Shown here: positions 5,871 through 43,381 of the stretch, one piece after another
How the letters are laid out: each line of letters starts with the position of its first letter
Numbering within the stretch: position 1 is the first letter of the stretch
Source: Bacillota bacterium
GTDB lineage: Bacteria; Bacillota; Limnochordia; Limnochordales; ZCTH02-B6
Direction of reading: 5' to 3'
Assembly (NCBI GenBank): GCA_017656145.1
Contig: JACDOI010000006.1
Coordinates: 400 to 64,399, forward strand
DNA: 64,000 bases
The notes under the pieces: model-generated
Database searches by the model: none
What the model saw: the letters and a program-made list of their open reading frames with translations, nothing else
Told to the model about the DNA's origin: nothing
Program-made: the position numbers and the translations under genes

Positions 5871-5893
5871 CCCGCGCGGTGAGGAGGGGGCGC

Positions 5894-28757: not shown

Positions 28758-29806
28758 GCGGCATGGACGGGAAGCGGCCGCCGCACGGGCCGGGCGGGTC
28801 CGTCGACGGCGCGGTCCTGGCCGCGGCTGCCGTTCTCATGGCCGTGTTGGGCGCCGTATCGCCCCTGCCGTTGTGGGGGCTATCTCCTGCACCGCTGGCG
28901 GCGCTGGTGTACCGCCACGGCTACCGGGCCGGCATTGTTTCCGCGGCGTTTGTGGTAATCGTTGCCGGTGCTCTGCAGGGGCCGCTTTTGGCAGAGCTGG
29001 AACCCATCCTCCCTTCTGGGACCGAGCGCCCGGCGCTTTTGTCCGCCATGGCTGTCCCCGTGACCGTGGGGCTTTTGGGGCTTGTCATCGGTGGGGCATG
29101 GCGGGAGGGCGTTGCGGCAGGACCCACCTTTTGGCTCGGCCTGGGCGCGGCGCTGTTTCCCGGCGCCGCCCTGTGGACTCTTGTCCGGGTGATCGAGCGG
29201 GTTGATCTGGTAGGCCTGGTGATCGATGTTTGGGTGGCTCTGCTTGAAACCGCGGCCGATCAGGCGGCGGGCGGACCCTTGGCTCCTGAGGCCGCTAGGA
29301 GCCTGCAAGAGGCCGCAGCCAGCTGGAAGCAAGCGTTTGCCGAGGCGCGGCCGCTTTTTCCCGGCATGATGGCGAGCTATGCGGTCCCGTGGGCATTCGT
29401 CAACATGGCCATTGCCCGCTGGCTGTTGCAGCGTCTTGGCGAGGCGCCGCCCTGGTTTCCGCCCTTTTCCCGATGGCGGTTCCCGTGGCCGGTGGCCCTC
29501 GGGTTCGTCGCCGGCCAGGGATTGTTGCTTGGCGCTGCGATTACCGGCAGCCGGTTGATGGAAATCGCCGGGGGCAACCTGAACGTCTTTTTTAGCGTAC
29601 TGTTTACGGTGCAGGGGCTGGCGGTAGGCTGGCACTGGCTGAAGCGGCGAAGGGTGCCGCCGCTTCTGGGGGCCGTCATGTTGGGAATCGTTTGGTTCGC
29701 CCTTCCCAACGTGCCCCCGTGGGCTGGGGTGCTGGATACGTGGTTCAATTTTCGCCGGCTTCCGACTTCCGATGAGGCCGCCGACGGGGGGAGAATCGAG
29801 GGATGA
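28754..29806 (+). CDS. YybS/DUF2232 membrane protein
   Basis: Multiple TM helices; PPFSRWRFP, QGLAV and G.LD.WFNFRR motifs; synteny before rplI. Confidence 0.88.
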   Translation: MSGMDGKRPPHGPGGSVDGAVLAAAAVLMAVLGAVSPLPLWGLSPAPLAALVYRHGYRAGIVSAAFVVIVAGALQGPLLAELEPILPSGTERPALLSAMAVPVTVGLLGLVIGGAWREGVAAGPTFWLGLGAALFPGAALWTLVRVIERVDLVGLVIDVWVALLETAADQAAGGPLAPEAARSLQEAAASWKQAFAEARPLFPGMMASYAVPWAFVNMAIARWLLQRLGEAPPWFPPFSRWRFPWPVALGFVAGQGLLLGAAITGSRLMEIAGGNLNVFFSVLFTVQGLAVGWHWLKRRRVPPLLGAVMLGIVWFALPNVPPWAGVLDTWFNFRRLPTSDEAADGGRIEG

Positions 29807-30255
29807 AGGTCATCCTGTTGCAGGACGTCAAAGGCTTGGGCCGGAAAAACGACGTGGTCGACGTGGCCGAAGGGTACGGACGTAACTACCTGATCCCGCG
29901 AGGGCTCGCGCTGTTGGCCACCGACGCGAGCTTAAAGCAGCGGGAGCAGAAACAGCGAGCCGAGAAGCGCAAGCGGGAACGGGAGGAAGCCCAGGCCCGG
30001 GAGACCGCAACCAAGCTGGAAGCCCGGCCGCTGGTGCTCAAGGTCAAAGCGGGTGAGGGCGGCAAGCTGTTTGGCTCCGTCACGGCCGCCGACATCGCCC
30101 GGGAACTGTTGCAGCAGCACGGCGCCAACGTGGACAAGCGCCGCATCGAGCTGGATGAGCCCATCAAGTCAATCGGAACCTATGAAATTGCCGTCAGGCT
30201 TCATCCCGGGGTGCAGGCCCGCCTCAAGCTGGAAGTGCTGGAGGAGTCGTCATGA
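29803..30255 (+). CDS. rplI: 50S ribosomal protein L9
   Basis: MKVILLQDVKGLG...VAEGYGRNYLIPRG, GKLFGSVT, IKSIG. Confidence 0.98.
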   Translation: MKVILLQDVKGLGRKNDVVDVAEGYGRNYLIPRGLALLATDASLKQREQKQRAEKRKREREEAQARETATKLEARPLVLKVKAGEGGKLFGSVTAADIARELLQQHGANVDKRRIELDEPIKSIGTYEIAVRLHPGVQARLKLEVLEESS

Positions 30256-32192
30256 GTTTCTGGAAGCGGCCCCCGGCCGGCCAGGCGCCGGCCGGGCCGC
30301 GCCCGGCGATACGGGTCAGCGGAGACGCCCGGCGCCGGTTGGCCGTCTTATGGGAGGTCATGGCCAAGGTCCACGGCCCCGACGGGCTGGTGCTCAAGGC
30401 CGGCCAGCTGGACGTCTTGCAGGACATGCGGTCTGACGATCCCGTCCGGCAGGCGGTAGCTCTCCGCCGGCTGTTGCACGACGACCCGACCCTCGACGGT
30501 GCACCGTCCGAGCGATTCGACGAGATTCTAAACGAGCTGGAGGAGACGGTCGCCGATCTGCTGGCCCGGCGCGCGGTCGAGGCGCAAATCGAGCGGCGGG
30601 TAGCCGAGCGGCTGCGGGCCCGTCATGAGGAGTACGTCAAAGATTTGCGCCTTCAGGTTATCAAGGAGGAGGGCGGACCCGATAACGCTCACACGCTGCG
30701 CAAGCTGGCGCAGCTGGAAAAGCTGGAGCGGCGCCGCCTGTCCCGCCCGCTGGCAGAGGAGCTGAGGCCCCGGACGCTTGAGGAAGTCGTCGGCCAGGAG
30801 CGAGCGGTGGAAGCCCTCATGGCCCGGCTCTGCTCGCCGTTCCCGTCCCATGTCATTCTCTACGGGCCGCCCGGGGTCGGCAAGACGACGGTGGCCCGGC
30901 TTGTGCTTGAGGCGGCCAAGAGGCTGCCGTACACACCGTTTTCGGAAGATGCACCCTTTGTGGAGGTGAACGGCGCCACCCTCCGCTGGGACCCCCGGGA
31001 GGTGGTCAACCCTCTCTTGGGCTCGGTACATGACCCGATCTACCAAGGAGCCCGCCGGGAGCTGGCGGAGACCGCGGTTCCCGAGCCGAAGCCCGGACTC
31101 GTGACCGACGCCCACGGCGGTGTACTGTTCATCGACGAAATCGGCGAGATGGACCCGTTGCTCCAGGTCAAGCTTCTGAAAGTCTTGGAAGACAAGCGGG
31201 TGAATTTCGACTCGGCCTACTACGACCCCGACGATCCGAAAGTTCCCCGCTACATCCGCAAGCTGTTTGAGGAAGGCGCGCCGGCGGACTTCGTCTTGAT
31301 CGGCGCGACCACCAGGGAGCCCGGCGAAATTAATCCGGCCCTGCGCTCCCGGTGCGCGGAAGTATTTTTCGAACCTTTGACCGATCGCCAAATCCAGCTG
31401 ATTGTCGCCCAGGCCGCCGGCCGCCTGGGAGTGGAGCTCGATCCCGAAGTGCCGGCCCGGATCAGCCGTCACACCGTGGAAGGCCGCATGGCCACCCGGA
31501 TGCTCGCGGACGCCTACAGCCTGGCGCTGCACCGGGCCGGGGGCCGCGAGCCGGTCCGCATCACCGCCGAGACGGTGTCGGAAGTGGTGCGCATCGGCCG
31601 CATTCCGCACCTGGCGCCGGCCCGGCCCCGGCGGCCGGCGGAAGTCGGCCGGGTTTTCGGCCTGGGCGTCAACCGGTACGTCGGCGCCGCGGTGGAGATC
31701 GAAGCCGTGGCCTTTCCCGCCCGGAAGCCGGGCAAGGGCACCGTCCGGTTCAACGAGACAGCCGGCACCATGTACCGGGACTCGGTGTTCAATGTGGCCT
31801 CCGTGCTGCGGAAAGTCGCGGGGCTGGATCTTTCCGACTGGGATGTGCACGTCAATGTTGTAGGCGGCGCCCGCATCGACGGGCCGTCAGCCGGGGCTGC
31901 TATCCTGGTCGCGGTGATGAGCGCCGTCCGAGGCTGGCCCGTCCGGCAGGACACGGCCGTCACCGGCGAGGTGTCCATTCAAGGGTTCATCCGCCCGGTG
32001 GGCGGCGTGTACGAAAAGCTCTACGGCGCCCGGCGGGCGGCGCTCCGCCGGGTTTTGCTCCCGCAGGACAACGCGGCTGACGTTCCCGGCCCAGTGGAGG
32101 GGCTTGAGGTGGTGTCCGTGGCGACAGTAGAGGAGGTCGTCGCGGAGATGTTCGGCGGGTTGGCCGAAGACGAGGCGAGCAATGGTGCGTGA
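30252..32192 (+). CDS. lonC: Lon-family ATP-dependent protease LonC
   Basis: Walker A GPPGVGKT, LFIDEIGE, DGPSAG (catalytic Ser), PVGGVYEK (Lys). Confidence 0.92.
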   Translation: MSFWKRPPAGQAPAGPRPAIRVSGDARRRLAVLWEVMAKVHGPDGLVLKAGQLDVLQDMRSDDPVRQAVALRRLLHDDPTLDGAPSERFDEILNELEETVADLLARRAVEAQIERRVAERLRARHEEYVKDLRLQVIKEEGGPDNAHTLRKLAQLEKLERRRLSRPLAEELRPRTLEEVVGQERAVEALMARLCSPFPSHVILYGPPGVGKTTVARLVLEAAKRLPYTPFSEDAPFVEVNGATLRWDPREVVNPLLGSVHDPIYQGARRELAETAVPEPKPGLVTDAHGGVLFIDEIGEMDPLLQVKLLKVLEDKRVNFDSAYYDPDDPKVPRYIRKLFEEGAPADFVLIGATTREPGEINPALRSRCAEVFFEPLTDRQIQLIVAQAAGRLGVELDPEVPARISRHTVEGRMATRMLADAYSLALHRAGGREPVRITAETVSEVVRIGRIPHLAPARPRRPAEVGRVFGLGVNRYVGAAVEIEAVAFPARKPGKGTVRFNETAGTMYRDSVFNVASVLRKVAGLDLSDWDVHVNVVGGARIDGPSAGAAILVAVMSAVRGWPVRQDTAVTGEVSIQGFIRPVGGVYEKLYGARRAALRRVLLPQDNAADVPGPVEGLEVVSVATVEEVVAEMFGGLAEDEASNGA

Positions 32193-33069
32193 CTTTTCGG
32201 GAGAAACGGCGGTGGTAGGCCTCATCGGCTACCCGGTGGCCCATTCGCTTTCGCCGGTGATGCACAATCGGGCCTTCGCCCAGCTCGAGATGAACTGGGT
32301 GTACGTGCCGTTCCCGGTCCGGCCTGAAGATCTCGAAGCCGCGGTGAAGGGACTGCGAGCCCTGTCGTTGCGGGGCGTCAACGTCACCGTTCCCCACAAG
32401 ACCGCGATCGTGCCGTTCCTTGACCGGCTGACGCCAGCCGCGGCCGCCATCGGGGCGGTCAACACCGTGATCAACCAAGATGGCTATCTGGTCGGCGACA
32501 ACACCGACGCCATTGGGTTCGTTCGGTCGTTGCGGGAGGAAGCGGATTTCGACCCGGCGGGAAGCCGGGCGGTCATCCTCGGCGCGGGCGGGGCCGCTCG
32601 GGCCATCGCTGTGGGACTGGCGGAAAGCCGTGCAGCCCGCATCGCCATCGCCAACCGGACGCGGGAACGGGCCCGGGAGCTGGCTGAACTTGCCGCCCGG
32701 CTGGGCCCTGAAACGACGGCGCTGGCGCTAGACTCTCCGGAACTGGAAGAGGAGCTGGCCGCGGCCGACGTGCTCGTTCAGACGACGCCTTTGGGGATGG
32801 CCGGCGCCGGAGAAGCCCACCTGCCCGTGAACGAAAACTGGTTGCATCCTCCCCTGCTGGTATGCGACATTGTATACACACCGCTTTACACACCCCTGTT
32901 GGCCGCGGCCGCCCGCCGCGGATGCCGGATCGTGCCGGGATGGGGGATGTTGCTGTATCAGGGCGTCGAGGCCTTTGAACGATGGACGGGGAGGCCCCCG
33001 CCGATCGCGGTCATGCGCCGGGCCCTTTTGGACGCGCTGCAGATGAGCCAAGGAAGCGAGGAGGCGTAA
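32182..33069 (+). CDS. aroE: Shikimate dehydrogenase
   Basis: HSLSPVMHN, NVTVPHK, GAVNT, NTD, GAGGAA, ML.YQG. Confidence 0.95.
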   Translation: MVRDFSGETAVVGLIGYPVAHSLSPVMHNRAFAQLEMNWVYVPFPVRPEDLEAAVKGLRALSLRGVNVTVPHKTAIVPFLDRLTPAAAAIGAVNTVINQDGYLVGDNTDAIGFVRSLREEADFDPAGSRAVILGAGGAARAIAVGLAESRAARIAIANRTRERARELAELAARLGPETTALALDSPELEEELAAADVLVQTTPLGMAGAGEAHLPVNENWLHPPLLVCDIVYTPLYTPLLAAAARRGCRIVPGWGMLLYQGVEAFERWTGRPPPIAVMRRALLDALQMSQGSEEA

Positions 33070-33078
33070 ACGGTTCGG

Positions 33079-34266
33079 ATGACGGTCGAACGGTACGGCG
33101 AGCTCGGGTCCGCAGCGCGGATCTTGCTGGGCCCGGGCCCAAGCGAACCGGATCCCCGCGTCATGCAGGCCATGATCACTCCGGTGGTGGGCCATCTGGA
33201 TCCGGCGTTTCTCAACGTCATGAACGACACCCGAGATCTGCTCCGGTCGGCGTTCGCCACGGCCAACCGGCTGACAGTGGCCATGTCGGGTACGGGCAGC
33301 GCCGGGATGGAGACGTGCATGGTCAACCTATTGGAACCCGGCGATCGGGCCGTCATCTGCGTCAACGGCGCCTTCGGCGAGCGCATGGCCGAGATGGCGC
33401 GCCGCACGGGTGCGGAGACGGTCATCGTGCGGGCACCGTGGGGACAGCCCATAGACCCGGCGGATGTGGAAGAGGCGCTCAAGCAAGGCGGTGCCAAGAT
33501 CGTAGCCTTCGTTCACGTTGAAACCTCCACCGGCGTCTGCCAGCCCGTCGAGGAGATCGCGTCCTGCGCCCGGGCCTACGGGGCCCTTTCGGTGCTGGAC
33601 GCGGTATCGTCTTTGGGCGGCATGCCGGTTCGCATCGACGAGTGGGGGATCGACGCGGCGTACAGCGGTTCCCAGAAATGCCTGGGCGCTCCGCCGGGCC
33701 TGGCGCCGGTGACGCTCAACGACCGGGCCCGGGAGCGCATTGCCCGCCGAAAGGGGGCGGTACAAAGCTGGTATCTCGATCTGACGCTGATCGAGAACTA
33801 CTGGGGCGAAGCCCGCGCCTACCACCATACCGCTCCTATTTCCATGGTGTACGCTTTGCGGGAGGCGCTGCGGGTCGCGGCGGCCGAAGGCTGGGAAGCC
33901 CGATTCGAGCGGCACCGCCGGCTGGGCCGGGCGCTGCAGGCGGGCCTGGCCGCGATGGGGCTTGAGCTTCTTGCGCCCAGGGAGTACCGGGCCCCGGTCG
34001 TGACCGCGGTCCGGGTGCCCGACGGGGTGGACGAGGCCGCAGTCCGCCGCCGGCTCCTGGCGGAGTACGGGATCGAGATCGCCGGAGGTCTCGGAGAGCT
34101 CAAGGGGCAGGTATGGCGCATCGGCCTCATGGGTTATTCGTGCCGCTGGAGGAACGTGGTGCTGCTCCTTTCCGCTTTGGGCGCCGTCCTAAGGGATCTA
34201 GGAATCCAGGCGTCGGTGGACGAGGCGCTTTCCGCCTCGGCTGAGGCGCTGGCCGCGGGAGATTGA
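33079..34266 (+). CDS. Alanine-glyoxylate/serine-pyruvate aminotransferase (class V PLP)
   Basis: LLGPGPS, ETSTG, DAVSSLGG, SGSQKCL (PLP-Lys), YHHTAP, WRIGLMG. Confidence 0.93.
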   Translation: MTVERYGELGSAARILLGPGPSEPDPRVMQAMITPVVGHLDPAFLNVMNDTRDLLRSAFATANRLTVAMSGTGSAGMETCMVNLLEPGDRAVICVNGAFGERMAEMARRTGAETVIVRAPWGQPIDPADVEEALKQGGAKIVAFVHVETSTGVCQPVEEIASCARAYGALSVLDAVSSLGGMPVRIDEWGIDAAYSGSQKCLGAPPGLAPVTLNDRARERIARRKGAVQSWYLDLTLIENYWGEARAYHHTAPISMVYALREALRVAAAEGWEARFERHRRLGRALQAGLAAMGLELLAPREYRAPVVTAVRVPDGVDEAAVRRRLLAEYGIEIAGGLGELKGQVWRIGLMGYSCRWRNVVLLLSALGAVLRDLGIQASVDEALSASAEALAAGD

Positions 34267-34387
34267 CCGGCCGGCGAGGAGGCCGGAAGGCAGGGAGCCG
34301 GAAAGACCCGGGCGCGTCCGTTTGGGTTCCAAGCATATAAGTACGTCATAGACCGGTGCCCGGAAGCTCTCGGCTGGAGGGTGCAGC

Positions 34388-35500
34388 GTGCGCAAATTGC
34401 GGGTGGGGGTTATCTTCGGCGGCCGCTCCGGCGAGCACGAAGTGTCCCTCATGTCGGCTCAAAGCGTCATTCAGGCCATCGACCGGCAGAAATACGAAGT
34501 AGTTCCCATTGGGATCACGCGCGACGGCCGGTGGATCGCCTCCGGGGACCCGATGCGGGCCTTGCTCGAAGGCAGACCGGGCCTGTCAGCCCCCGCGGCG
34601 GTCTTGCCCCAGCCCGGCGCCGGGTTGCGCCTGACCGACGGCGGCAGTTCGGGCAGGGAGTCAGGGGATGCGGCCATCGACGTGTTCTTTCCCGTGCTCC
34701 ACGGGCCCTACGGCGAGGACGGCACGATCCAAGGGCTCCTCGAGCTGGCCGGAGCGCCGTATGTGGGATCGGGCGTTGCCGCCTCGGCCGCAGGAATGGA
34801 CAAGGCGATGATGAAAGCACTTTTCCAGCAGGCGGGCCTGCCGGTGGTGCCCTACGTCGTCGTCGTCGAGCCCGAGTGGCGGCGGGATGCGGCGGCAGTC
34901 CGGGCCCGGCTGGAAGCGGAGATCGGATACCCGTGTTTCGTCAAGCCGGCGAACATGGGCTCCAGCGTCGGCGTGAGCCGGGTGACATCAGGGGAGGGCT
35001 TGGGCCCTGCGCTGGAGCGGGCGCTGCGCTACGACCGCAAGGTGCTCGTCGAACAGGAGGCCTCTTGCTGCCGGGAAGTGGAAGTGGGCGTGCTCGGCAA
35101 CGACGATCCCGAGGCTTCGGTCCCCGGCGAGGTCGTGCCCGCCGGAGACTTTTACGATTACCGGGCAAAATATCTCGACGACCGCTCGGAGCTCATCATC
35201 CCCGCCCGCATCGGTCCCAAGGCCCGGGCCGCGGTGCGCGACATCGCTCTGCGGGCTTTCCGGGCCATCGACGGGGCGGGCCTTGCCCGGGTGGACTTCT
35301 TCGTTCACAAGGAGACCGAGCGAGTCTGGGTGAATGAGATCAATACGATGCCGGGATTCACCCGGATGAGCATGTTCCCCAAACTCTGGGAAGCATCCGG
35401 CCTGCCCTACGACCAGCTCATCGACCGCTTGATCCAACTGGCCCTGGAACGCCATGGCCAGCGGGCCCGGCTGGAAACCCGGCCCGAACCCGCCGGCTGA
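34388..35500 (+). CDS. ddl: D-alanine--D-alanine ligase
   Basis: FGGRSGEHEVS, LHGPYGEDG, KPANMGSSVG, FYDY.AKY, NEINTMPGFT. Confidence 0.97.
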   Translation: MRKLRVGVIFGGRSGEHEVSLMSAQSVIQAIDRQKYEVVPIGITRDGRWIASGDPMRALLEGRPGLSAPAAVLPQPGAGLRLTDGGSSGRESGDAAIDVFFPVLHGPYGEDGTIQGLLELAGAPYVGSGVAASAAGMDKAMMKALFQQAGLPVVPYVVVVEPEWRRDAAAVRARLEAEIGYPCFVKPANMGSSVGVSRVTSGEGLGPALERALRYDRKVLVEQEASCCREVEVGVLGNDDPEASVPGEVVPAGDFYDYRAKYLDDRSELIIPARIGPKARAAVRDIALRAFRAIDGAGLARVDFFVHKETERVWVNEINTMPGFTRMSMFPKLWEASGLPYDQLIDRLIQLALERHGQRARLETRPEPAG

Positions 35501-35524
35501 TTCCTGATTCGGGGAGGGAGCCCG

Positions 35525-35827
35525 GTGCCTGCGTCGTTGCGCCTCGTTCTGGCTAGCGCCGCTATGGCCGGCTGGGCGTGGTGGTTTTGGAACGTTGTCG
35601 TTCACGCGGCGATGCCCGCCTATGGACCGCCGGCCCATCATCTCGCGGCTTTGCGGGCTGCGGAGACGCACGGCGTTTTGGCCGGAGCGGTTGTTCTCGC
35701 CCTCTGGGGGCGGGAACTGGCGCTGTGGTTCCGGAGGCGAACTTCCGGGATCGCCCGGGGGAGCCGCCGTTCGGGAGGAATCCGCGGGCGGGCGGCCGAA
35801 TCCCGCGCGCACGTGTCCTGGAGGTGA
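35525..35827 (+). CDS. Small hypothetical membrane protein
   Basis: GGGAGGGAG RBS, two hydrophobic segments, fills the gap between ddl and the DnaD gene. Confidence 0.5.
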   Translation: MPASLRLVLASAAMAGWAWWFWNVVVHAAMPAYGPPAHHLAALRAAETHGVLAGAVVLALWGRELALWFRRRTSGIARGSRRSGGIRGRAAESRAHVSWR

Positions 35828-35835
35828 CTGGTCCG

Positions 35836-36672
35836 GTGGCCACGGAGGGTATCCGCCTGGATGACGGCGGAGCAAGGAAGGACTGGCCACTTTTGGTGCC
35901 GCGCGCCATTCTGTCCGCGTACCAGCCCGTCGTCGGCACCACCGCCACCCTTCTTTGGCTCAACCTGTACGCCATGGCCAGTGGGGATCCGGCCGGGGAT
36001 GCCGGACCGCCCGCGATGCCCGTGGAACCTGCGAGCTTTCCGAGCAGCGGCCCTCGAAGCGAGACGGCGCAAGGATTTGACGGTGCAAGGCTTGTGGACA
36101 GGCTCTCCCGGTTAATGAGCGTATCCGCCGCGGAAGTCGAACGGGCCGCCCAGAAGCTGGAGAGCGCGGGGTTGCTGGTGCGCTCGCCCGCGGGGTGGCT
36201 TTTACGCTGGCCGGAAGGGGCGCCTCCCGCGCCAGCAACCAGCGCCGCGCCCGGGGGCGCTGCGGAGGGGCCGGAGCCTTTGGCCCGGCGCTCGGCGGAC
36301 GTAGAGGATGCGCTCAAAGCGGTGGTCGCCTTTTACCATCAGCGAATCGGGCTGATGGGCCCTTCGCAGTTTCAGCGGCTCCGGTTTTGGATCGAGGAAC
36401 AAGGCATGTCCGCCGACGTGGTGGCCTTGGCCATCGAAGAAACGGTCCGTTCGGCCCGCACGCCCCGGCTCAACTACCTGGAAGGGGTGCTGCGCAACTG
36501 GTACAACGAAGGGATCCGCACCCTGGAAGATCTGCAGCGGAGCCAGCGGGCCCGGGCGCTGAAGTCTACGGCCAACGCAGAAGGATCGCCCAACGCGGCT
36601 GCGTACAATCCGGTCGACCCTGACGCGGTCCGCCGCTGGAAGGAGATGTTCGCCGATGAGTATGACGGCTGA
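35836..36672 (+). CDS. DnaD-domain protein (N-terminal winged-helix-like, C-terminal DnaD/DnaB_2 domain)
   Basis: YQPVVG..AT.LWL.L and A..KLE.AGLL; C-terminal DVVALAIEE...LNYLEGVLRNWYNEGIRTLED (YxxxxLxxW motif); GTG 35836 after GGAGGTG. Confidence 0.82.
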   Translation: MATEGIRLDDGGARKDWPLLVPRAILSAYQPVVGTTATLLWLNLYAMASGDPAGDAGPPAMPVEPASFPSSGPRSETAQGFDGARLVDRLSRLMSVSAAEVERAAQKLESAGLLVRSPAGWLLRWPEGAPPAPATSAAPGGAAEGPEPLARRSADVEDALKAVVAFYHQRIGLMGPSQFQRLRFWIEEQGMSADVVALAIEETVRSARTPRLNYLEGVLRNWYNEGIRTLEDLQRSQRARALKSTANAEGSPNAAAYNPVDPDAVRRWKEMFADEYDG

Positions 36673-38035
36673 AGCCCGCCGTCTGCCGCATCTGGCCGAC
36701 CTCGACGCCGAGCGGCGGATCATTGGAATCTTCTTGAAACACCCCGAGACGGTGGACATGGCTGTGGACCGTCTCACCCCGGAACATTTCCAGGATCCGG
36801 CCCACCGCCAGATCTATGAGGTTATCCTCGACTTGTATCATAACGGCGGTCGGGTTTCGTACACCCAGGTGTACAATCGCCTCCGCAAAAACGCCGGAGT
36901 GCCGTGGAACGACATCCTCATCGCCATCACCGAGTCGTTCGTCAGCCAGGCGGAGCTTATTCCGAGCCTCGATTCCCTCAGCGAACGGCTGGCCCGCCGC
37001 CGCATTTTGGCCGCGGCCGAAGAAATTCAGCGGCTGGTGCTGTTTGACCAAGATCAGCCCGTCGACCGGCTGCAGGCCCGGGCCCAGGAGCTGATCTTTC
37101 AGGCCACCGCCCAGAGCGCGGGCGGCGACGACGTGAAAGACCTCATCGATGTGCTGCGCAAATGTTACGTAGAGTTACTGGAGCGGCGCGAGGGGAAACG
37201 GCCGTCGGGCCTGCTGGTGAAGTATCCGTCCATCGACATGGTGACGACCGGTTTCAAAAGCGGCGACCTGATCATTCTGGCTGCCCGTCCCTCGATGGGC
37301 AAAACGTCGCTGGCCCTCAACTGGGCCGTCAACGTGGCCAAGTCCCGGCAGCGGACGCCGGTGCTCATCTTCAGCCTGGAAATGGACGACGTGCAGATCG
37401 GCGATCGGCTCGTCATCAGCGAACTGCTCCGGTACAAGGAGCAAGGGCCGGCGGCGGAGGTGACCGCCCGGGACTACGCGACCCGCATGGACGACGCCAA
37501 GTTCGCCCGCACCCAGTCCATCTTCAACGAGCTGTACCACCTGCCGATCAAGATCGTGGATCGACGGGGACTCACCGTCACCGATATTCGGGCGAAGGCC
37601 CGCAAGGTGAAAGCCGAAGAGCCGAACCTGGGCCTCATCATCATCGACTACCTGCAGCTCATCAAGCCGCCGCCGGCCAGCAACAAAAACTGGGCGCTGG
37701 TCGTCGGCGACATCGTGCGGGAAGTGCGGGATCTGGCCGGCGAACTCGACGTGCCCATTATCCTGCTGTCCCAGCTGAACCGGGGCGTGGAATCCCGGGA
37801 CAACAAGCGGCCGGTCATGTCGGACCTGCGGGACAGCGGCAACATCGAGGAGTTCGCCGACGTCGTCATCTTCCTTTACCGGGAGGACTACTACTACCCC
37901 GATAAGGCCCGGGAAAACGGGACCGAGGGAATGGTGGAAGTCATCTTCGCCAAGCAGCGCAAGGGCGAAACCCGCACGGTCCAGTTGCGGTTCGTCAAAG
38001 AGTACACCCGGTTCATCGACCCGGCCGATGAGTGA
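36656..38035 (+). CDS. dnaB: DnaB-family (SF4) replicative helicase, divergent
   Basis: N-terminal AER.IIG...L.PEHF..PAH..IY; AARPSMGKTS, FSLEM, IIIDYLQL, LSQLNR, SDLRDSG.IEE.AD, AKQRKG. Confidence 0.9.
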   Translation: MSMTAEARRLPHLADLDAERRIIGIFLKHPETVDMAVDRLTPEHFQDPAHRQIYEVILDLYHNGGRVSYTQVYNRLRKNAGVPWNDILIAITESFVSQAELIPSLDSLSERLARRRILAAAEEIQRLVLFDQDQPVDRLQARAQELIFQATAQSAGGDDVKDLIDVLRKCYVELLERREGKRPSGLLVKYPSIDMVTTGFKSGDLIILAARPSMGKTSLALNWAVNVAKSRQRTPVLIFSLEMDDVQIGDRLVISELLRYKEQGPAAEVTARDYATRMDDAKFARTQSIFNELYHLPIKIVDRRGLTVTDIRAKARKVKAEEPNLGLIIIDYLQLIKPPPASNKNWALVVGDIVREVRDLAGELDVPIILLSQLNRGVESRDNKRPVMSDLRDSGNIEEFADVVIFLYREDYYYPDKARENGTEGMVEVIFAKQRKGETRTVQLRFVKEYTRFIDPADE

Positions 38036-38267
38036 TGGGCGGTCGATGAAGGAGGGCAGGCCGTTGGACTTGTTTGAGGACATGGAACGGCTGAAGCTCA
38101 AGTTTTTGGCCGCGTTTGAAGAGCTGGCCCGGCGCGGCATCATCGGCGAAGCGCAGCTCGCGGAGATCATCGATCTGGTGGACAAGCTCGACGAGCTTTC
38201 GGAGGAGGAAATCCGGGCCCGGCTTGGCCGCTACGTTCCGGGGGATGTCGATGCGGGCGTTGGCTGA
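38028..38267 (+). CDS. Small acidic helical hypothetical protein
   Basis: 79 aa, overlaps both the dnaB stop and the next gene start; protein-like composition. Confidence 0.7.
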   Translation: MSDGRSMKEGRPLDLFEDMERLKLKFLAAFEELARRGIIGEAQLAEIIDLVDKLDELSEEEIRARLGRYVPGDVDAGVG

Positions 38268-39249
38268 CGACCGGATCAAAGCATTGGTCTTTCTCGCGGT
38301 TCTCTACGGGTTGGTGATGGCTTCTCCGTCGTGGGCGATCCTCGGGGTGACGGTGGTGGACGAAGACCGGATCGTTCACGCCGAGGCGTTCCGGGGTACT
38401 GTGGAGAAAGCTCTGGACCAGTTGCAGGTACCCATCGACGCGGGCGACCGGATCCGCCCCGGCCCGGACGCGCCCCTTGCGCCCGGGATGACGGTGGCCA
38501 TCGAGCGGGCTGTGCCCGCCGTCATCGCTGTCGACGGCCATCAGCGGGTGCACCGGGCGCCGGCCCGGACCGTGGCCGAATTTCTGGCCGATGCGGGCGT
38601 GGAGCTCGGTCCCGACGACCGGGTCATCCCCTCGCCGGCAACGCCGGTGAAGCCCGACATGGTCATCCGGGTGATCCGCGTCCGGCACGAGGAGGCGGTA
38701 CGGCAGGTGCCCATCCCGTACGAAACGCGGCGGTGGGCCGAACCCCGCTGGGAAAAGGGGCGGGTCGGAGTGCTCCGGCCCGGCCGGCCGGGAGTCGAAC
38801 AGCAGAAGATCCGCTTAACGTACGAAGACGGCCTGCTGGTGCGCCAGGCGATAGTGGAGCGCACCGTCGTCGAGGAGCCCCGGGCGGAGATCATCGGCAT
38901 CGGCACCCGCATCGTCGTCCGCACCCTCGAAACGCCCTCGGGCCCCATTCGGTACACCGACGTCCTGGAGATGGACGCCACCGCCTACTACCCTGGTCCT
39001 GAGAGCACCGGCCGGTTCGCCGACGGGCGGACCGCGACGGGCCTTTTGGCCGGCCACGGCGTAGTGGCGGTGGATCCCTCGGTCATCCGCCTCGGCACCC
39101 GCGTCTACATCCCCGGATACGGCATTGCCATCGCGGGCGACACCGGATCGGCCATCCGGGGACGGAGAATCGACCTGGGGTTTGACACGTACCGGGAAGC
39201 GGTCCACTACGGCCGGCGGCGGGTGTTGGTGTACATCCTGGCGGACTGA
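38251..39249 (+). CDS. YabE-like cell-wall protein (DUF348, G5, 3D domains)
   Basis: TVAEFL...G..LGPDDRV.P, G5 segment, ATAY...TATG...VAVDPSVI.LG...A.DTGSAI.G.RIDL. Confidence 0.9.
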   Translation: MRALADDRIKALVFLAVLYGLVMASPSWAILGVTVVDEDRIVHAEAFRGTVEKALDQLQVPIDAGDRIRPGPDAPLAPGMTVAIERAVPAVIAVDGHQRVHRAPARTVAEFLADAGVELGPDDRVIPSPATPVKPDMVIRVIRVRHEEAVRQVPIPYETRRWAEPRWEKGRVGVLRPGRPGVEQQKIRLTYEDGLLVRQAIVERTVVEEPRAEIIGIGTRIVVRTLETPSGPIRYTDVLEMDATAYYPGPESTGRFADGRTATGLLAGHGVVAVDPSVIRLGTRVYIPGYGIAIAGDTGSAIRGRRIDLGFDTYREAVHYGRRRVLVYILAD

Positions 39250-39278
39250 CTCATCCTACCTTGCGGAGGGACTACCCG

Positions 39279-40229
39279 ATGGATGCAGGACGGCTGGCCA
39301 CCCCTTCCGGGGTGGCCGCCATTTTGGCCGCCTACGGCTTATCGCCCCGGAAGGGGTTGGGCCAGCATTTCCTCGTCGACCGGCATATCGTCGAGAAGAT
39401 CCTCGCCGCGGCCCAGCTCGGCCCCGAGGACACCGTTCTTGAGATCGGACCCGGACTGGGCGTACTCACCCAGGAAATGGCCGCCCGGGCAGGACGGGTC
39501 ATCGCGGTCGAGGTGGATGCCGGCCTCGTCCGCTGGCTAAACGACCTGTTCACGGGTTGTGATCGCGTCCGGATCGTCCACGGGGACGCCCGGACCGTCG
39601 ATCTCAAGGAGCTCTTGTCCCAACATCCACCCGGGCCCGGCGGCTCGGCCAAGGCGGTGGCCAACCTTCCCTACTACGTGACGACCCCGCTGCTGTTGCG
39701 CCTGCTGGAAGAGCCGCTGTCCCTGTCGATCATCGTCGTCATGGTGCAAAAAGAAGTGGCCCGGCGCCTGGCTGCCGCGCCCGGCGGAAAGGACTACGGG
39801 GCTTTGTCGGTTGCCGCCCAGCTCCGAGCCGAAATCGAACTGGTCTGCACCGTGCCAGCGAGGGTCTTTTTCCCGGCTCCGGACGTGGAGTCGGCAGTCG
39901 TGCGGCTGACGGTCCGGTCCACTCCCCAGCTAGGGAAAGATCCGCAGGTGCTATTCGCCCTCGTGCGGGCCGCCTTCGGCCAGCGGCGCAAAACGTTGCG
40001 CAACGCGTTGCGAAGGCCGGGTATGCCTTGGCCTGCCGCGGCCGTGCCCGCGGCCCTCGATGCGGCGGGCATCGATGGCGGCCGGCGGGGAGAAACGCTG
40101 AGCGCCGGCGAGTTCGTCCGGCTGGCCGACAGCCTGATCGCGGCCGACGACGCTTTGGCAAGGGACAACCGGGAATCCGCGGAACCCGGGAACCTGGCCA
40201 GCGGGCCGGTCCCGGGCGAGCGCCCCTAG
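39279..40229 (+). CDS. rsmA: 16S rRNA dimethyladenosine transferase
   Basis: KGLGQHFL, EIGPGLG, ANLPYYVTTP, MVQKEVA, F.QRRKTLRN. Confidence 0.97.
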   Translation: MDAGRLATPSGVAAILAAYGLSPRKGLGQHFLVDRHIVEKILAAAQLGPEDTVLEIGPGLGVLTQEMAARAGRVIAVEVDAGLVRWLNDLFTGCDRVRIVHGDARTVDLKELLSQHPPGPGGSAKAVANLPYYVTTPLLLRLLEEPLSLSIIVVMVQKEVARRLAAAPGGKDYGALSVAAQLRAEIELVCTVPARVFFPAPDVESAVVRLTVRSTPQLGKDPQVLFALVRAAFGQRRKTLRNALRRPGMPWPAAAVPAALDAAGIDGGRRGETLSAGEFVRLADSLIAADDALARDNRESAEPGNLASGPVPGERP

Positions 40230-40242
40230 CTGGGCTGCGTCG

Positions 40243-40271
40243 TTGTTCGCTCCTTTCGCAAATGATATAAT
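40243..40271 (+). promoter_or_regulatory. sigmaA promoter of YkuK-like gene
   Basis: TTGTTC-17 bp-TATAAT with extended -10 TG. Confidence 0.65.
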
Positions 40272-40295
40272 GTCTCGCGAAAGGTGGCGGCGGCG

Positions 40296-40766
40296 ATGGA
40301 ATTTATCAGCCCGTCGAAGGGCCGGCTGTCCTTCGACGAGGTGTTTGAGGACATGATGGCCTATGTCGATGAGGAGCCCGACGCCAAGTACAAGGTGATC
40401 ATCGGCTCGGACTCCCAGTTTGGCCCGGAAACGTGCTTCGTCACCGCGATCATCATCCACCGGGAAGGCAAGGGCGCCCGCTACTACTACACCCGAGAGC
40501 GGGAGCGGGTCGACCGATCGTTGCGCCAGCGCATCTATTACGAGACCGCCCGCAGCCTGGGCTTGGCCAGCCGCATCGCCGAGCGGATGGCCGAAAACGG
40601 CCATGCCGACATGAACGTCGAGATTCACCTGGATGTCGGCGAAAACGGCCGGACCCGGGAGCTCATCCGGGAAGTCGTGGGAATGGTGGTCGGCTCCGGG
40701 TTCGACGCCCGAATCAAGCCGAATTCGTACGGTGCCATGACGGTGGCCGACAAGTTCACCAAATGA
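40296..40766 (+). CDS. RNase H-like YkuK (DUF458) family protein
   Basis: IIGSDSQ, FVTAIIIHR.GKG, RIYYET..S, EIHLDVG.NG.T, ADKFTK. Confidence 0.92.
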   Translation: MEFISPSKGRLSFDEVFEDMMAYVDEEPDAKYKVIIGSDSQFGPETCFVTAIIIHREGKGARYYYTRERERVDRSLRQRIYYETARSLGLASRIAERMAENGHADMNVEIHLDVGENGRTRELIREVVGMVVGSGFDARIKPNSYGAMTVADKFTK

Positions 40767-40813
40767 TCGGGTGAGCTTGTCGCACCTCGTCCGCCCCCGG
40801 GCGCGCCTTGGGC

Positions 40814-40841
40814 GCACCGGTGCACGCCCGCGCCATAGTAT
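40814..40841 (+). promoter_or_regulatory. sigmaK-like promoter before amidase
   Basis: gcAC-16 bp-CATAGTAT matches AC-N16-CATANNNT. Confidence 0.45.
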
Positions 40842-40897
40842 GGGGTAGAGCCCGGGCCGGCAGGCCGGGGCTGCCTCGTTGTGAGGGGGCGGCATCT

Positions 40898-41758
40898 GTG
40901 CAAGCGACGATCCGGGTGTTTGTCAACGGCCGGGAGATGGAAAATCCGGAGGCGCCACCCGTACAGTGCAACGGGCGCCTTTATGTGCCGGCCCGCCAGT
41001 TGCTCCAGCGGCTCGGGGCCCGGGTGCGGGTGGAAACGGCCAGGGCTTGCGTCGCGGTGGACCCGCAAACGTCCAAAACGACCATCGTCGCGGGCCGCCG
41101 GGAGGGCCGCCATGGACCGCTGCTCGCTGCCGCCGAGCGGGTCGTCGAAGCCGCCGGCGGCCGCATGGATTGGGATGCGGAGCTTGGGGTGTTCATCGCC
41201 CAGCGGCGGGAAACGTGGGTTGCCAAACGGTCGCTGGCCATCGACGCAGGCCACGGGGGCCGGGACACCGGGTCCACTACGGCCGCCGGATTGGCTGAGA
41301 AAGACCTCAACCTGGCCATCGCTCATCGCCTTCAGAAACTCGTCCAAATGGCCGGCGGCCGGGCGGTGCTGACCCGCAGCCGCGACCACCATCGGGTCAT
41401 GGCCGAACGCCTCCGGCGGGTTCGCTCCCGCGGAGTCGACGCGCTCATCAGCATCCACCACAATTCCCATGCGGACACAAGCCTGAGCGGATGCGAAGCC
41501 TACTTTTTCGAGAGCGATGCCGGCCGCCGCCTGGCCTTTTGCCTGCAGGACGAGGTTGCCCAGGAACTGGGACTCCCGGACCGGGGAGTGCGGGAAGCCG
41601 GGTTTGACGAACTGCGCCACGGCGCAATCGGGGCCGTGTGCAAGCTGGCGTTCCTGTCGAATCCGAAGGACGCGGCGGTGGTGGCCTCCCCTTACTACCC
41701 GCTGCAGGCGGCGTTGGCGCTGTTTCGAGGATGGCGCCGGTTTTGCGAAGGGCTGTAG
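40898..41758 (+). CDS. N-acetylmuramoyl-L-alanine amidase (Amidase_3) with N-terminal copper-amine-oxidase-N-like domain; catalytic Glu apparently lost
   Basis: IDAGHGG.D.G, EKDLNL, LTRS.D, ISIHHN, K-L-A-F-L-S-N. Confidence 0.85.
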   Translation: MQATIRVFVNGREMENPEAPPVQCNGRLYVPARQLLQRLGARVRVETARACVAVDPQTSKTTIVAGRREGRHGPLLAAAERVVEAAGGRMDWDAELGVFIAQRRETWVAKRSLAIDAGHGGRDTGSTTAAGLAEKDLNLAIAHRLQKLVQMAGGRAVLTRSRDHHRVMAERLRRVRSRGVDALISIHHNSHADTSLSGCEAYFFESDAGRRLAFCLQDEVAQELGLPDRGVREAGFDELRHGAIGAVCKLAFLSNPKDAAVVASPYYPLQAALALFRGWRRFCEGL

Positions 41759-41798
41759 GCCCCCAACCGGGAGCGCGAAAGAAGGTCCCAACGGTATC

Positions 41799-41869
41799 TT
41801 GACAACGTCTCTCTGCCTTGCTATAATCATCTAATTTCCGTTGACACTATCCGGGAACCGTGGTAACAT
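41799..41869 (+). promoter_or_regulatory. Tandem sigmaA promoters of veg
   Basis: TTGACA-17 bp-TATAAT (41799-41827) and TTGACA-17 bp-TAACAT (41841-41869), both with extended -10 TG. Confidence 0.88.
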
Positions 41870-41904
41870 GAAATAGGTACACGGCGCGAGAGGGGTGATG
41901 ACCG

Positions 41905-42174
41905 TTGGCCGCAAACCGCAAGAGCCTCGACGAGATCAAGCGCGATCTCGATATGTACGTGGGCAGGCGGGTCAAGTTGCGGGCCAACCGCGGCCGCCGG
42001 AAGTTCATCGAGGCGGAAGGCATTTTGGAGCAGACGTACCCGAAGGTTTTCGTCGTCCGCCTCAACAAGCGCGGCGGGGTAACCAACCGGATGTCCTACT
42101 CGTACGCCGATGTGCTGACGTCCACCGTTGAAGTGACTGTGGACGACAAGCAGATCGGAGCGGCAAACATGTAA
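41905..42174 (+). CDS. veg: Veg protein
   Basis: VG.RVKL.AN.GRRK...EGILE.TYP.VFVV...SYSYADVLT.TVE. Confidence 0.96.
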   Translation: MAANRKSLDEIKRDLDMYVGRRVKLRANRGRRKFIEAEGILEQTYPKVFVVRLNKRGGVTNRMSYSYADVLTSTVEVTVDDKQIGAANM

Positions 42175-42232
42175 CGGTTCTCGGCAAACGATCCTTTGGG
42201 CCCCGCGGCCCAAAGGGCGCGGTGCAGGACAT

Positions 42233-42259
42233 GCCCAGGGATTTCCCTGGGCTTTTTTT
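42233..42259 (+). terminator. Intrinsic terminator after veg
   Basis: GCCCAGGG-ATTT-CCCTGGGC-TTTTTTT, preceded by a second hairpin at 42193-42216. Confidence 0.9.
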
Positions 42260-42355
42260 CTCTGCCCGCCGGACGGAGCAGGCTGAGCGGTCGCGCATAG
42301 GCTGAATCAAGCCGTCGCTGGCGGCCGGGACGGCGGGCAAGGGGGGAGACTCGTC

Positions 42356-43381
42356 ATGCCTTCGGAAAAAGCGGGTTGGGTGAACCGGCTGCGCGATCGG
42401 GTGCTCCCGTTGCCGAACGTGGTAGGGTGCGGGTGGGGAGAAAAGCGAACCCGGGGCCGGCCCACGGGCAAGCACGGGATGATCGTGTTTGTGAAACGCA
42501 AGGTTCCCGCCCAAAAGCTCAAAAAGGGCGAGCGGGTGCCCGCCGTTTTGGGGGCGTTGCCCACCGACGTGGTGGAAGTCGGCGAACTGCGGCTGTTGGC
42601 CGTGGAAACGCCCGTGCTGCGCACGATGAGGCTGCGGCCCGCACCGCCGGGGGTGAGCGTCGGACACCTTTTGGTGTCTGCGGGCACCCTGGGAGCGGTG
42701 GTGAAGGATGCCGCCACCGGCAGGACCCTCATCTTATCGAACAATCACGTCCTGGCCAACCAGACCGACGGCCAGGACGGGCGGGCTCAGGCCGGCGATG
42801 CGGTCCTGCAGCCGGGGTCGTACGACGGCGGCCGGGTGCCGCAGGACATCATCGGACGACTGGCGCGGTTTGTTCCCATCCGCCGCTGTGCCACCGAGCC
42901 CCGCTGCTCGGTTGCCCGTGCCGCGGAGCGGGTGCTGAACGCCGGAATGCGCTGGCTCGTTCCCAAGTACCGGATACGGTTTGCGCGCTTGGAAGAAGCG
43001 GACAACCTGGTGGACGCGGCGGTGGCCGAACCCGCGGCACCGGGAATCGTCAAGCCGTCAATTTTGGATTTAGGCCCGGTGCGGGGCGTAGCCGAAGCGG
43101 AAGTCGGAATGCGGGTAGAAAAAAGCGGCCGCACCAGCGGCGTCACCCGGGGAGAAGTCATTGCCCTCGGCGCCACGTTTACCGTGTCGTTGGGCGACTC
43201 GGTCGCAGCCCGGTTCAGCGACCAGATTGTCACGACCCCCATGGCCCAGCCCGGAGACAGCGGATCGCTGATCGTGGACGAGCGTCGCCGGGCGGTAGGG
43301 CTCCTGTTTGCCGGTTCGGAGCAAGCCACGCTGTGCAACCGGATTCAAAACGTTCTCGAACAGCTGGACATCCACTTCTGA
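42356..43381 (+). CDS. Trypsin-like (Nal1-type) serine protease
   Basis: AGTLG, ILSNNHVLAN (His), VDAAVA (Asp), PGDSGS (Ser), VGLLFAGS. Confidence 0.85.
   Translation: MPSEKAGWVNRLRDRVLPLPNVVGCGWGEKRTRGRPTGKHGMIVFVKRKVPAQKLKKGERVPAVLGALPTDVVEVGELRLLAVETPVLRTMRLRPAPPGVSVGHLLVSAGTLGAVVKDAATGRTLILSNNHVLANQTDGQDGRAQAGDAVLQPGSYDGGRVPQDIIGRLARFVPIRRCATEPRCSVARAAERVLNAGMRWLVPKYRIRFARLEEADNLVDAAVAEPAAPGIVKPSILDLGPVRGVAEAEVGMRVEKSGRTSGVTRGEVIALGATFTVSLGDSVAARFSDQIVTTPMAQPGDSGSLIVDERRRAVGLLFAGSEQATLCNRIQNVLEQLDIHF

Follow-up and report, generated by a model that had tools for sequence, protein, structure and literature searches.

A probable housekeeping helicase operon of Limnochordales, in which a DnaD-type gene overlaps the helicase gene and the gene of a small conserved acidic protein follows

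Of the steps that initiate bacterial replication, helicase loading is, to our knowledge, conserved the least. DnaC/DnaI, DciA and DopE stand in for each other as loaders, and the DnaD and DnaB adaptors of the Firmicutes are, so far as we are aware, understood only in B. subtilis. The helicase of that bacterium, DnaC, belongs to the E. coli DnaB family. Its gene has an origin-proximal site after ssb-rpsR-...-rplI, in a gene order that we take to place it downstream of rplI, and dnaD is presumably unlinked to it. The last 8 residues of B. subtilis DnaD are described as binding the co-loader DnaB (PMC10201434, PMC13326638), and positive and aromatic residues as abundant in its ssDNA-binding tail (PMC10201434). 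In C. difficile, the dnaD-like gene CD3653 adjoins the loader gene CD3654 and lies in the same region as the helicase gene CD3657 (PMC5204125). DnaD-like and DnaB pairs are also typical of phage replication modules, where the two domain families (PHROG 186 and PHROG 19) stand side by side. Our literature search found nothing on DnaD in Limnochorda, on the replicative helicase in Limnochordia, or on the arrangement described below in Clostridia.

The window, i.e., the whole 64-kb stretch of DNA analysed here, comes from a Limnochordales (Bacillota) genome, and 56 ORFs were called in it. It is an origin-proximal part of the chromosome. The gene set yidC-jag-rsmG-noc-soj-spo0J ... ssb-rpsR-rplI is present, every gene lies on the same strand, and the cumulative GC skew rises. 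The gene order around the helicase gene is as follows: rplI-lonC-aroE-agt-ddl-(membrane ORF)-dnaD-dnaB-orf67-yabE-rsmA. An earlier note on this DNA had read four co-oriented ORFs between ddl and yabE-rsmA, and the ORF positions and domain matches bear this out (Table 1). The same note placed aroE in the usual dnaB slot. aroE does directly follow rplI-lonC, but the usual rplI-proximal helicase slot is better read as widened by about 4.5 kb of genes inserted between lonC and the helicase gene, namely aroE, agt, ddl, the membrane ORF and dnaD. In a promoter and terminator scan of positions 29000-42500, the sole strong promoter lies upstream of veg and no terminator-like site was found between 32.3 and 41.5 kb; as the counts are not above those of shuffled sequences, no operon boundaries are claimed from them. 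An Rfam scan of the whole window returned 0 families.

Table 1. Features of the helicase block and its borders (positions in the window)
Feature	Position	Strand	Details
ddl	34388-35500	+	upstream border of block
Membrane ORF, small basic protein, 100 aa, pI 12	35525-35827	+	RBS GGGGAGGGA at 35512-35520
dnaD, predicted DnaD-type replication initiation / helicase-loading adaptor, 278 aa	35836-36672	+	PF07261 5.4e-17, TIGR01446 4.8e-15
Translational-coupling junction	36640-36672	+	dnaB RBS AAGGAG 36640-36645, ATG 36656, dnaD TGA 36670-36672; overlap 36656-36672
dnaB, replicative DNA helicase (DnaB family, SF4), 459 aa	36656-38035	+	PF03796 6.5e-80, PF00772 1.2e-14
orf67, acidic (pI 4.35) three-helix protein, 67 aa	38064-38267	+	TTG start, RBS AAGGAGG 38049-38055
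yabE (DUF348-G5-3D cell-wall protein)	start 38245 or 38251	+	downstream border, then rsmA

The DnaD-type protein begins with a putative winged helix, which a low-complexity linker joins to a single DDBH2 domain; an acidic tail forms the C-terminus. The DDBH2 motif YxxxIxxxW is found as YLEGVLRNW, with Y214, L219 and W222 unchanged across 24 aligned sequences. The AF2 model (mean pLDDT 81) has a confident helix-helix-helix-hairpin in residues 1-125, apart from the loop at 50-82, and 4 of 24 homologues match MarR_2. The top Foldseek matches are DnaD (9a5c_B), Geobacillus primosome DnaB (5wtn) and the S. mutans DnaD-like protein 2zc2. The last is matched with TMt 0.86 and rmsd 1.4; the whole-chain matches to the other two have low TM because the domains are loosely placed. 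A second DDBH2, as in the B. subtilis DnaB-type co-loader, was not found, there being a single PF07261 stretch and one bundle in the model. Among 59 homologues, the named ones are each a 'DnaD domain protein' of Limnochordales/Limnochordia, and a database entry identical to the 278-aa form exists. The longer ORF of 364 aa, from GTG 35578, was rejected, as the codon-position GC signature begins near 35800, homologues start MxTEG and the database form has 278 aa.

With B. subtilis DnaD, the protein shares the YxxxIxxxW motif, conservation of the extreme C-terminus and, apparently, the arrangement in two domains. Sequence likeness, however, is limited to DDBH2 (PDB 8ojj, E 0.008), and the window protein differs in its long Ala/Pro-rich linker, in the overlap of its gene with the helicase gene, and in its tail. 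The conserved tail, ...PNAxAYxxVDxxAVRRWKEMFADEYDG, is acidic (residues 245-278: pI 4.1, 7 D+E vs 3 K+R), and a basic/aromatic ssDNA-binding tail as in B. subtilis DnaD is absent. Thus, the functional analogy is partial.

The dnaD gene overlaps the start of the helicase gene by exactly 17 nt, as the earlier note had stated for a wHTH/DnaD-domain gene and a DnaB-family helicase. Both the RBS and the start ATG of dnaB lie within the final 11 dnaD codons, the RBS in the tail codons W-K-E. The conservation of the last ~10 residues of the DnaD tail is therefore confounded. The overlap is kept in 10/10 loci including the window; it is 17 nt in 8 other loci and 14 nt in the locus L010. With coupling of this kind, a single mRNA would yield the two proteins, adaptor and helicase, at a fixed ratio. 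Fusions of DnaD and helicase were not found among the longer homologues, which says little; P0058 (377 aa, DnaD plus the DnaB N-terminus) looks like a MAG read-through or frameshift, not a true fusion.

In the helicase, PF00772 covers residues 14-100 and PF03796 residues 185-454. Alignment to Geobacillus DnaB confirms that the SF4 motifs are kept yet diverged. ARPSMGKT, FSLEM, IIDYLQL, LSQLNR and SDLRDSG are all present, which we take to be H1 (Walker A), H1a, H2 (Walker B), H3 and H4. IEEFAD, presumably a deviation in the H4 tail, stands in place of the (I/L)EQDAD of Geobacillus (two entries), Thermus and phage SPP1 G40P, and is invariant in 26/26 aligned family members. About 9 extra residues follow FSLEM relative to Geobacillus DnaB. 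The bacterial equivalog model TIGR00665 gives 358.3 bits, below its cut-off of 385.25, and outscores the phage_DnaB model TIGR03600 (326.4 bits, cut-off 498.65); the other replicative-helicase equivalogs are also below their cut-offs. The best PDB match is Geobacillus DnaB (237 bits), with E. coli at 213 and SPP1 G40P at 210. Judged by sequence, the protein appears to be the orthologue of the Limnochorda pilosa protein annotated 'replicative DNA helicase' (65% identity), and to belong to a Limnochordia-specific clade marked by IEEFAD and the ~9-residue insertion. Helicase activity is assumed, for a protein in which a near-invariant motif deviates and which scores below the trusted TIGR00665 cut-off. 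The window helicase matches B. subtilis DnaC in fold, in its two domains and in its motifs (Walker A ARPSMGKT, Walker B IIIDYLQL, SDLRDSG); it and its gene differ in the ~4.5 kb insert, in IEEFAD, in the insertion, in the low TIGR00665 score and in the start within the dnaD-type gene.

The block was then compared with 11 related loci, ±10 kb each, from genomes of differing G+C. The gene order recurs in these 11 loci, where DnaB identity to the window copy is 62-92%. dnaD lies upstream of dnaB in 9/9 loci that extend far enough, and orf67 lies immediately 3' of dnaB in 10/10. The dnaD-dnaB-orf67 trio is intact in L008 and L010 despite changed flanks. The membrane ORF is found in only six of nine loci (L001, L003, L004, L007, L008 and L009; missing from L002, L006 and L010). 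The per-locus identity of DnaB follows that of the flanking housekeeping genes: 86% vs 66-88% in L001 and 64% vs 44-60% in L010.

The membrane ORF ahead of dnaD, also predicted in the earlier note, is real by its RBS and its two hydrophobic segments (KD19 maxima 1.37 and 1.63), which are followed by a basic tail. The ORF ends within the region of the dnaD RBS. It has a conserved loop motif, A(V/I)PA(Y/F)GPxAHHxAAL, a dN/dS of 0.39-0.72, no family in Pfam, NCBIfam or PHROG, and leads under 0.9 only in the ESM Atlas. It is a variable member of the block, and the 2-TM protein is probably a dispensable passenger.

The most probable reading is that the block is a vertically inherited chromosomal replicative-helicase operon with a coupled DnaD-type adaptor, at the ancestral origin-proximal site downstream of rplI. 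The origin-proximal context, the synteny over 11 loci, the orthology with L. pilosa and the overlap kept in all 10 loci support the earlier suggestion of a housekeeping helicase with a dedicated partner. If B. subtilis DnaD and C. difficile CD3653 are a guide, the DnaD-type protein of such an operon should connect DnaA/oriC with the loading of the helicase. The data show what the genes are, their coupling and its conservation, the chromosomal setting and the lack of phage features; the contacts between the proteins, and the order of events, are inferred. What is unusual is only that the helicase gene is coupled to a DnaD-type gene and is followed by that of a small conserved acidic protein. 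The view that Firmicutes keep dnaD and the helicase gene apart fits B. subtilis but not C. difficile, where CD3653 shares a region with CD3657. The C. difficile CD3653-CD3654 (DnaI)-CD3657 arrangement is likewise a chromosomal DnaD-family gene in a conserved helicase region (PMC5204125). CD3653, however, is described there as DDBH1-DDBH2-DDBH2 beside a DnaI-type loader, whereas the window protein has one DDBH2, no loader gene in between, and direct coupling.

Downstream of the helicase, the earlier note had seen a 79-aa ORF that overlaps the stop codon of dnaB. Its frame is indeed coding, by its codon-position GC signature and by a dN/dS of 0.08-0.25 in 6/6 comparisons (shifted frames, 0.77-4.4), and orf67 is under purifying selection. 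The start of the longest ORF, ATG 38028, was rejected, as it has no RBS. TTG 38064 lies 8 nt past AAGGAGG, orthologues begin at the equivalent codon, and an ESM Atlas entry is identical to the 67-aa form in every letter. Thus, the probable start of orf67 is 28 nt beyond the stop of the helicase gene, with no overlap. An AF2 model (pLDDT 81.5) has helixes at residues 3-23, 29-40 and 47-55. Of 1.84 billion representatives, a profile search picked out 71; the source names given among the 20 looked up are 'hypothetical protein', bar one 'ArsR family' label. Seven representatives share their longest-contig size with a DnaB representative (6848, 9291, 3975, 20160, 40310, 20040 and 9267), which suggests that the two lie on the same contigs.

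The family of orf67 is small, has no name and includes SHOCT-like proteins. SHOCT (PF09851) is matched by 19/49 members (best 1.2e-6) and PF20612 by 7/49, the window copy matching neither at E<=1. SHOCT has no known function, and the two-helix unit of the orf67 family, with its conserved Gly and Glu, fits the published description (PMC3581485). orf67 differs in being free-standing with a third acidic helix, rather than a C-terminal appendage. orf67 itself has no Pfam, NCBIfam or PHROG match; no hit of a PDB profile search fell below E 0.03, no Foldseek match in PDB or BFVD reached E<=0.001 (lambda P chain 9oa2_Z, E 8.2), and leads in the ESM Atlas are under 0.9 only. By sequence families, neither orf67 nor the membrane ORF resembles the loaders DnaC/DnaI AAA+, DciA or lambda P/DopE, and orf67 does not by fold. 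Two other candidate likenesses were dropped: GatC was not significant (PDB profile E 0.23, Pfam E 0.12), and a Spo0E-like motif found no Pfam support among 49 members.

The earlier note had also proposed predicting the complex of the small acidic protein with DnaB. orf67 and DnaB fold together with an ipSAE of 0.48 (runs 0.42, 0.48 and 0.48), against 0.00 for the best of 3 controls; the partner pLDDT is at least 71 and the runs agree in 100% of contacts. The ipSAE mark is reached by 116/157 solved complexes and 2/215 mismatches, counts that hold only roughly since the alignments were self-made. Scores <=0.60 comprise 18/157 complexes and both passing mismatches, so the pass at 0.48 is a weak one. 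The model thus lends weak support to an orf67-DnaB contact, and a pass of this sort would be more often wrong than right unless the contact was likely beforehand.

Most likely, orf67 is an accessory or regulatory protein associated with the helicase. It might instead serve yabE, or be a generic SHOCT-like small protein that adjoins dnaB through operon packing only; yabE begins within the 3' end of orf67 in the window, in high-GC loci and in most loci overall, and both the SHOCT-like relatives and the weak complex prediction would fit. We hold this to be unlikely, if worth keeping in mind, as L010 lacks yabE and keeps an orf67 homologue directly after dnaB, and as orf67 appears to co-occur with DnaB on short contigs, to judge from the equal contig sizes. 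A larger role for orf67 is conceivable. That is, Limnochordia may be without DnaI and DciA, and the coupled DnaD-like protein, with its acidic tail, and/or orf67 may recruit and load the helicase directly. No DnaI/DnaC or DciA family is present among the ORFs of the 64-kb window or of the L008 and L010 flanks, although a lack within ±10-30 kb says little, since B. subtilis dnaI lies far from the helicase gene. The strictly conserved translational coupling, the constant position of orf67, its modelled contact with DnaB, and the motif changes and insertion of the helicase clade are consistent with such loading, and loaders are known to undergo non-homologous replacement (PMC5509034). Yet orf67 is unlike any known loader in Pfam, NCBIfam, PHROGs, PDB sequence or Foldseek, and we consider direct loading quite improbable. 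We would put equally little weight on the related proposal that the DnaD-type protein and orf67 together form a previously undescribed helicase-loading or -control system, working without DnaI/DnaC or DciA, to which IEEFAD and the insertion would be the matching adaptation.

The earlier note's other suggestion was a second replisome module (DnaD-like initiator plus DnaB helicase), derived from a phage and domesticated. This origin, or one from a plasmid, for a module beside the housekeeping genes is already largely refuted, and we regard it as very improbable. The pairing is that of phage modules, DDBH2 matches the PHROG 'DnaD-like helicase loader' at 8.8e-17, the helicase falls under the TIGR00665 cut-off, and GC at 36-38 kb is slightly lower (0.641 vs about 0.675). 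However, GC3 is 0.83, like that of the neighbours at 0.78-0.86. As the note itself had remarked, no integrase or structural phage genes lie nearby: none, nor lysis genes, is found among the window ORFs, and the flanks have no phage genes either. The closest phage helicase is 35% identical, and identity of at least 60% occurs in 0/1469 phage records; set against 65% to L. pilosa, this points to the housekeeping helicase rather than a phage-derived second module. Unlike phage modules, the pair keeps its origin-proximal backbone position in 11 genomes of differing G+C, and the identity of the helicase rises and falls with that of its neighbours.

For the preferred reading of a housekeeping operon, the class-wide overlap of a dnaD-type gene with the helicase gene, together with a constant small acidic partner gene, is a compact natural arrangement. 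It could help to find out which of the adaptor's contacts go back to the ancestor of Bacillota, and whether a DnaD-type protein can act directly on the helicase. Were direct loading true, Limnochordia, a deep-branching Bacillota class, would load the helicase without DnaI/DnaC or DciA. A 67-aa gene is easily mis-started or missed in annotation. As the helicase clade falls short of the curated cut-off for DnaB, its members are at times labelled by pipelines only as 'DnaB-like helicase C-terminal domain-containing protein', as in P0118.

The block between ddl and the yabE–rsmA pair consists of four co-oriented ORFs: a small upstream ORF, the gene of a DnaD-type protein (dnaD), the gene of a DnaB-family helicase (dnaB), and a small downstream ORF, orf67. 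The helicase gene, a housekeeping one, is itself ordinary, but its arrangement is unusual and class-wide. Pfam and NCBIfam searches assigned no family to either of the small ORFs.

Features of the block and of other parts of the window
Feature	Coordinates	Strand	Remarks
noc-like ParB-type gene	3213–4223	+	
spo0J-like ParB-type gene	4932–5870	+	
ParA/MinD-type ATPase gene	5825–7063	+	
845-codon open frame	23697–26231	-	coding-like GC3, 0.80
ddl	34388–35500		
Upstream small ORF	35525–35827	+	good RBS, two hydrophobic stretches, very basic tail
DnaD-domain protein	35836–36672	+	PF07261 5.4e-17, TIGR01446
DnaB-family helicase	36656–38035	+	PF03796 6.5e-80, PF00772 1.2e-14
orf67	38064–38267	+	probable start TTG 38064
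yabE start within the orf67 end	38245–38267	+	ATG 38245 or 38251
Sigma-70-type promoter	41799–41827	+	TTGACA, 17 nt, TATAAT, with TG
veg	41905–42174		
Terminator-like hairpin	42233–42252		

The longest dnaD ORF (GTG 35578, 364 aa) is too long, because the codon-position G+C of its frame has a coding signature only from near 35800. GTG 35836, a start common to homologues, gives a protein of 278 aa, the same length as in the protein database. The dnaB start, ATG 36656, is located 10 nt past AAGGAG (36640–36645), and the dnaD stop codon occupies 36670–36672; the 17-bp overlap reported in the earlier note is exact. The small membrane ORF that it placed before dnaD is likewise borne out by its RBS and hydrophobic stretches.

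The gene set of the window is the classic origin-proximal backbone of the Bacillota. The order is yidC, jag, rsmG, noc, soj, and spo0J, then ssb, rpsR, the gene of a DUF2232 protein, rplI, and lonC, whereas yabE, rsmA, veg, ispE, and purR are found 3′ of the block. Nearly all of the genes are on one strand, and the cumulative GC skew is rising. Over the full 64 kb (1–64000), no Rfam family scores at or above its gathering threshold. It had been suggested that aroE occupies the usual dnaB slot. aroE does follow lonC, but the context indicates that the helicase gene keeps its usual place close to rplI; what separates it from lonC is an insertion of aroE, an aminotransferase gene, ddl, the membrane ORF, and dnaD.

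A single scan of species-representative genomes, for which the helicase served as the query, found 11 loci at 62–92% identity, the gene content of which was assigned by tblastn and ORF inspection. The homologues with names belong to Limnochorda pilosa or to MAGs of Limnochordales, Limnochordia or Bacillota. A DnaD-type gene lies directly upstream of dnaB in all nine loci extending upstream, and an orf67 homologue lies directly downstream in all ten extending downstream; nine of the latter were identified by tblastn, and that of locus L010 by position and alignment, its type being confirmed by a profile hit (database representative P0192). The membrane ORF is present in six of nine loci; it is missing from L002 and L006, which leave no space for it, and in L010 an ABC-F gene takes its place. 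Thus, of the four-gene synteny proposed for testing in relatives, the dnaD-dnaB-orf67 trio is kept and the membrane ORF is variable. The dnaD/dnaB junction is kept in all cases: the genes overlap by 17 nt in the window and in eight of the loci, and by 14 nt in L010, and the W-(K/R)-E codons of dnaD contain the dnaB RBS every time. In L008 and L010, the genes farther upstream differ, yet the trio is retained; in L010 it stays together even without yabE.

Two database items deserve mention. L007 (JBAYXX010000210.1), a whole 3.8-kb contig with a DnaB identity of 64%, is labelled a Kiritimatiellia MAG yet has the Limnochordia-type ddl-memb-dnaD-dnaB-orf67 order, and is probably mis-binned; the only name given to its helicase cluster, P0118, is “DnaB-like helicase C-terminal domain-containing protein”. 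P0058, a 377-aa representative, is DnaD-like, continues into the first ~50 helicase residues and then into out-of-frame sequence. The probable cause is a frameshift or an assembly error in a MAG, located where the two genes overlap; the protein incidentally confirms the dnaD-dnaB adjacency in one more genome.

Two origins had been considered for the helicase, namely a housekeeping enzyme with a dedicated partner or part of a domesticated, phage-derived second replisome module. In L. pilosa, the orthologue (65% identity) bears the annotation replicative DNA helicase; the bacterial DnaB model scores 358 bits versus 326 bits for the phage model; and the best solved relatives rank as Geobacillus DnaB (237 bits), E. 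coli DnaB (213), and SPP1 G40P (210). Among the 1469 phage records with a match, the best has 35% identity and none reaches 60%. No phage genes were found in the window or in the flanks examined, in agreement with the earlier note. Based on these findings, phage origin is disfavoured, and we conclude from the window and the related loci that the protein is the lineage’s housekeeping helicase. Helicase identity per locus varies in step with the flanking housekeeping genes. The helicase clade is distinctive, and the divergence first noticed in the sequence holds up: all 26 aligned members have IEEFAD, whereas the counterpart in Geobacillus, Thermus, and SPP1 is (I/L)EQDAD, and ~9 residues are inserted after FSLEM. 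The TIGR00665 score is under the cut-off.

In the AF2 model of the DnaD-type protein (mean pLDDT 81), a disordered Ala/Pro-rich linker joins a probable winged-helix N-domain to a single DDBH2 bundle, after which comes a short C-terminal helix. The top Foldseek matches are DnaD, Geobacillus primosome protein DnaB, and a Streptococcus DnaD-like C-domain (TMt 0.86), and the YxxxIxxxW motif is present and is invariant in the family alignment. As judged from model and sequence, the architecture is therefore DnaD-like, with one DDBH2, rather than B. subtilis-DnaB-like or CD3653-like, with two. The conserved tail, EGxPNAxAYxxVDxxxVxRWKE(M/L)(F/Y)xDEYD, is acidic (pI 4.1), whereas the ssDNA-binding tail of B. 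subtilis DnaD is described in excerpts of PMC10201434 as basic/aromatic. The extreme end of the tail is reminiscent of the C-terminal eight residues of B. subtilis DnaD, to which co-loader binding is ascribed in excerpts of PMC10201434 and PMC13326638. The dnaB RBS and start embedded here are a confounding factor for the conservation of the final ~10 residues. A search for a DnaD-helicase fusion found none, which is weak evidence.

In B. subtilis, the pathway runs from DnaA to DnaD, DnaB, and then DnaI with the helicase (PMC13326638, in excerpt). The premise that Firmicute chromosomes keep dnaD and the helicase gene apart does not hold everywhere, as C. difficile has a DnaD-like gene next to dnaI in a region that also contains the helicase gene (PMC5204125, in excerpt); a chromosomal DnaD-type gene close to the helicase gene is therefore not new. 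What is new is the direct, conserved translational coupling of dnaD and dnaB without a loader gene between them, the acidic tail of the DnaD-type protein, and the constant 67-aa partner gene after dnaB. The literature searched, supplements aside, yielded no description of this coupled arrangement.

orf67 is truly coding, to judge from its sequence signature: its frame has the expected codon-position GC pattern, and its dN/dS versus six orthologues is 0.08–0.25, with 0.77–4.4 for shifted frames of the same DNA. It had been described as a 79-aa ORF overlapping the helicase stop. TTG 38064 sits 8 nt past AAGGAGG, orthologues start at the equivalent codon, each with its own RBS, and the ESM Atlas entry is the 67-aa form, identical letter for letter. 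These points disfavour ATG 38028; the start is probably TTG 38064, which would place orf67 28 nt beyond the helicase stop, with no overlap. Its 3′ end does overlap the yabE start, so the longest yabE ORF (TTG 38116) is too long; codon-position GC also changes frame near 38200–38240.

A profile from 11 orf67 orthologues picked out, from 1.84 billion, 71 representatives with E<=0.001; almost every one has 57–108 aa. Twenty of the 71 were looked up, and seven had a source name; six are only “hypothetical protein” (Limnochorda pilosa, Limnochordia, Bacillota MAGs, and one labelled Betaproteobacteria), and one has an additional JGI “ArsR family” label. Seven of the twenty match DnaB representatives in the size of the longest contig, and these pairs are read as lying on the same contigs. 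The AF2 model has three helices (pLDDT 81.5), and Foldseek against PDB and BFVD gave nothing significant. A SHOCT domain, described in an excerpt of PMC3581485 as of unknown function, matches 19 of 49 family members; the window copy has no match.

The proposed complex prediction with DnaB, run for orf67, gave an ipSAE of 0.48 (runs 0.42, 0.48, and 0.48; best control 0.00), with partner pLDDT at least 71 and runs agreeing in 100% of contacts, and was rated “weak support”. In calibration, 116 of 157 solved complexes passed the mark used, as did 2 of 215 mismatches, counts that are only rough here because custom alignments were used; ipSAE values <=0.60 include only 18 of the 157 solved complexes and both passing mismatches. 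With the 10/10 adjacency as a prior, the predicted binding of orf67 to the helicase is plausible.

Elsewhere in the window, the 845-codon frame matches no Pfam family at 1e-5; a soluble N-terminal part is followed by many hydrophobic segments, and the region has the window’s highest G+C (0.70) and AT skew (0.23). Two ParB-type genes flank soj; after them comes the gene of a second ParA/MinD-type ATPase, which has a fused PilZNR domain. The promoter just 5′ of veg is a perfect 12/12 match, and the terminator-like hairpin follows the gene.
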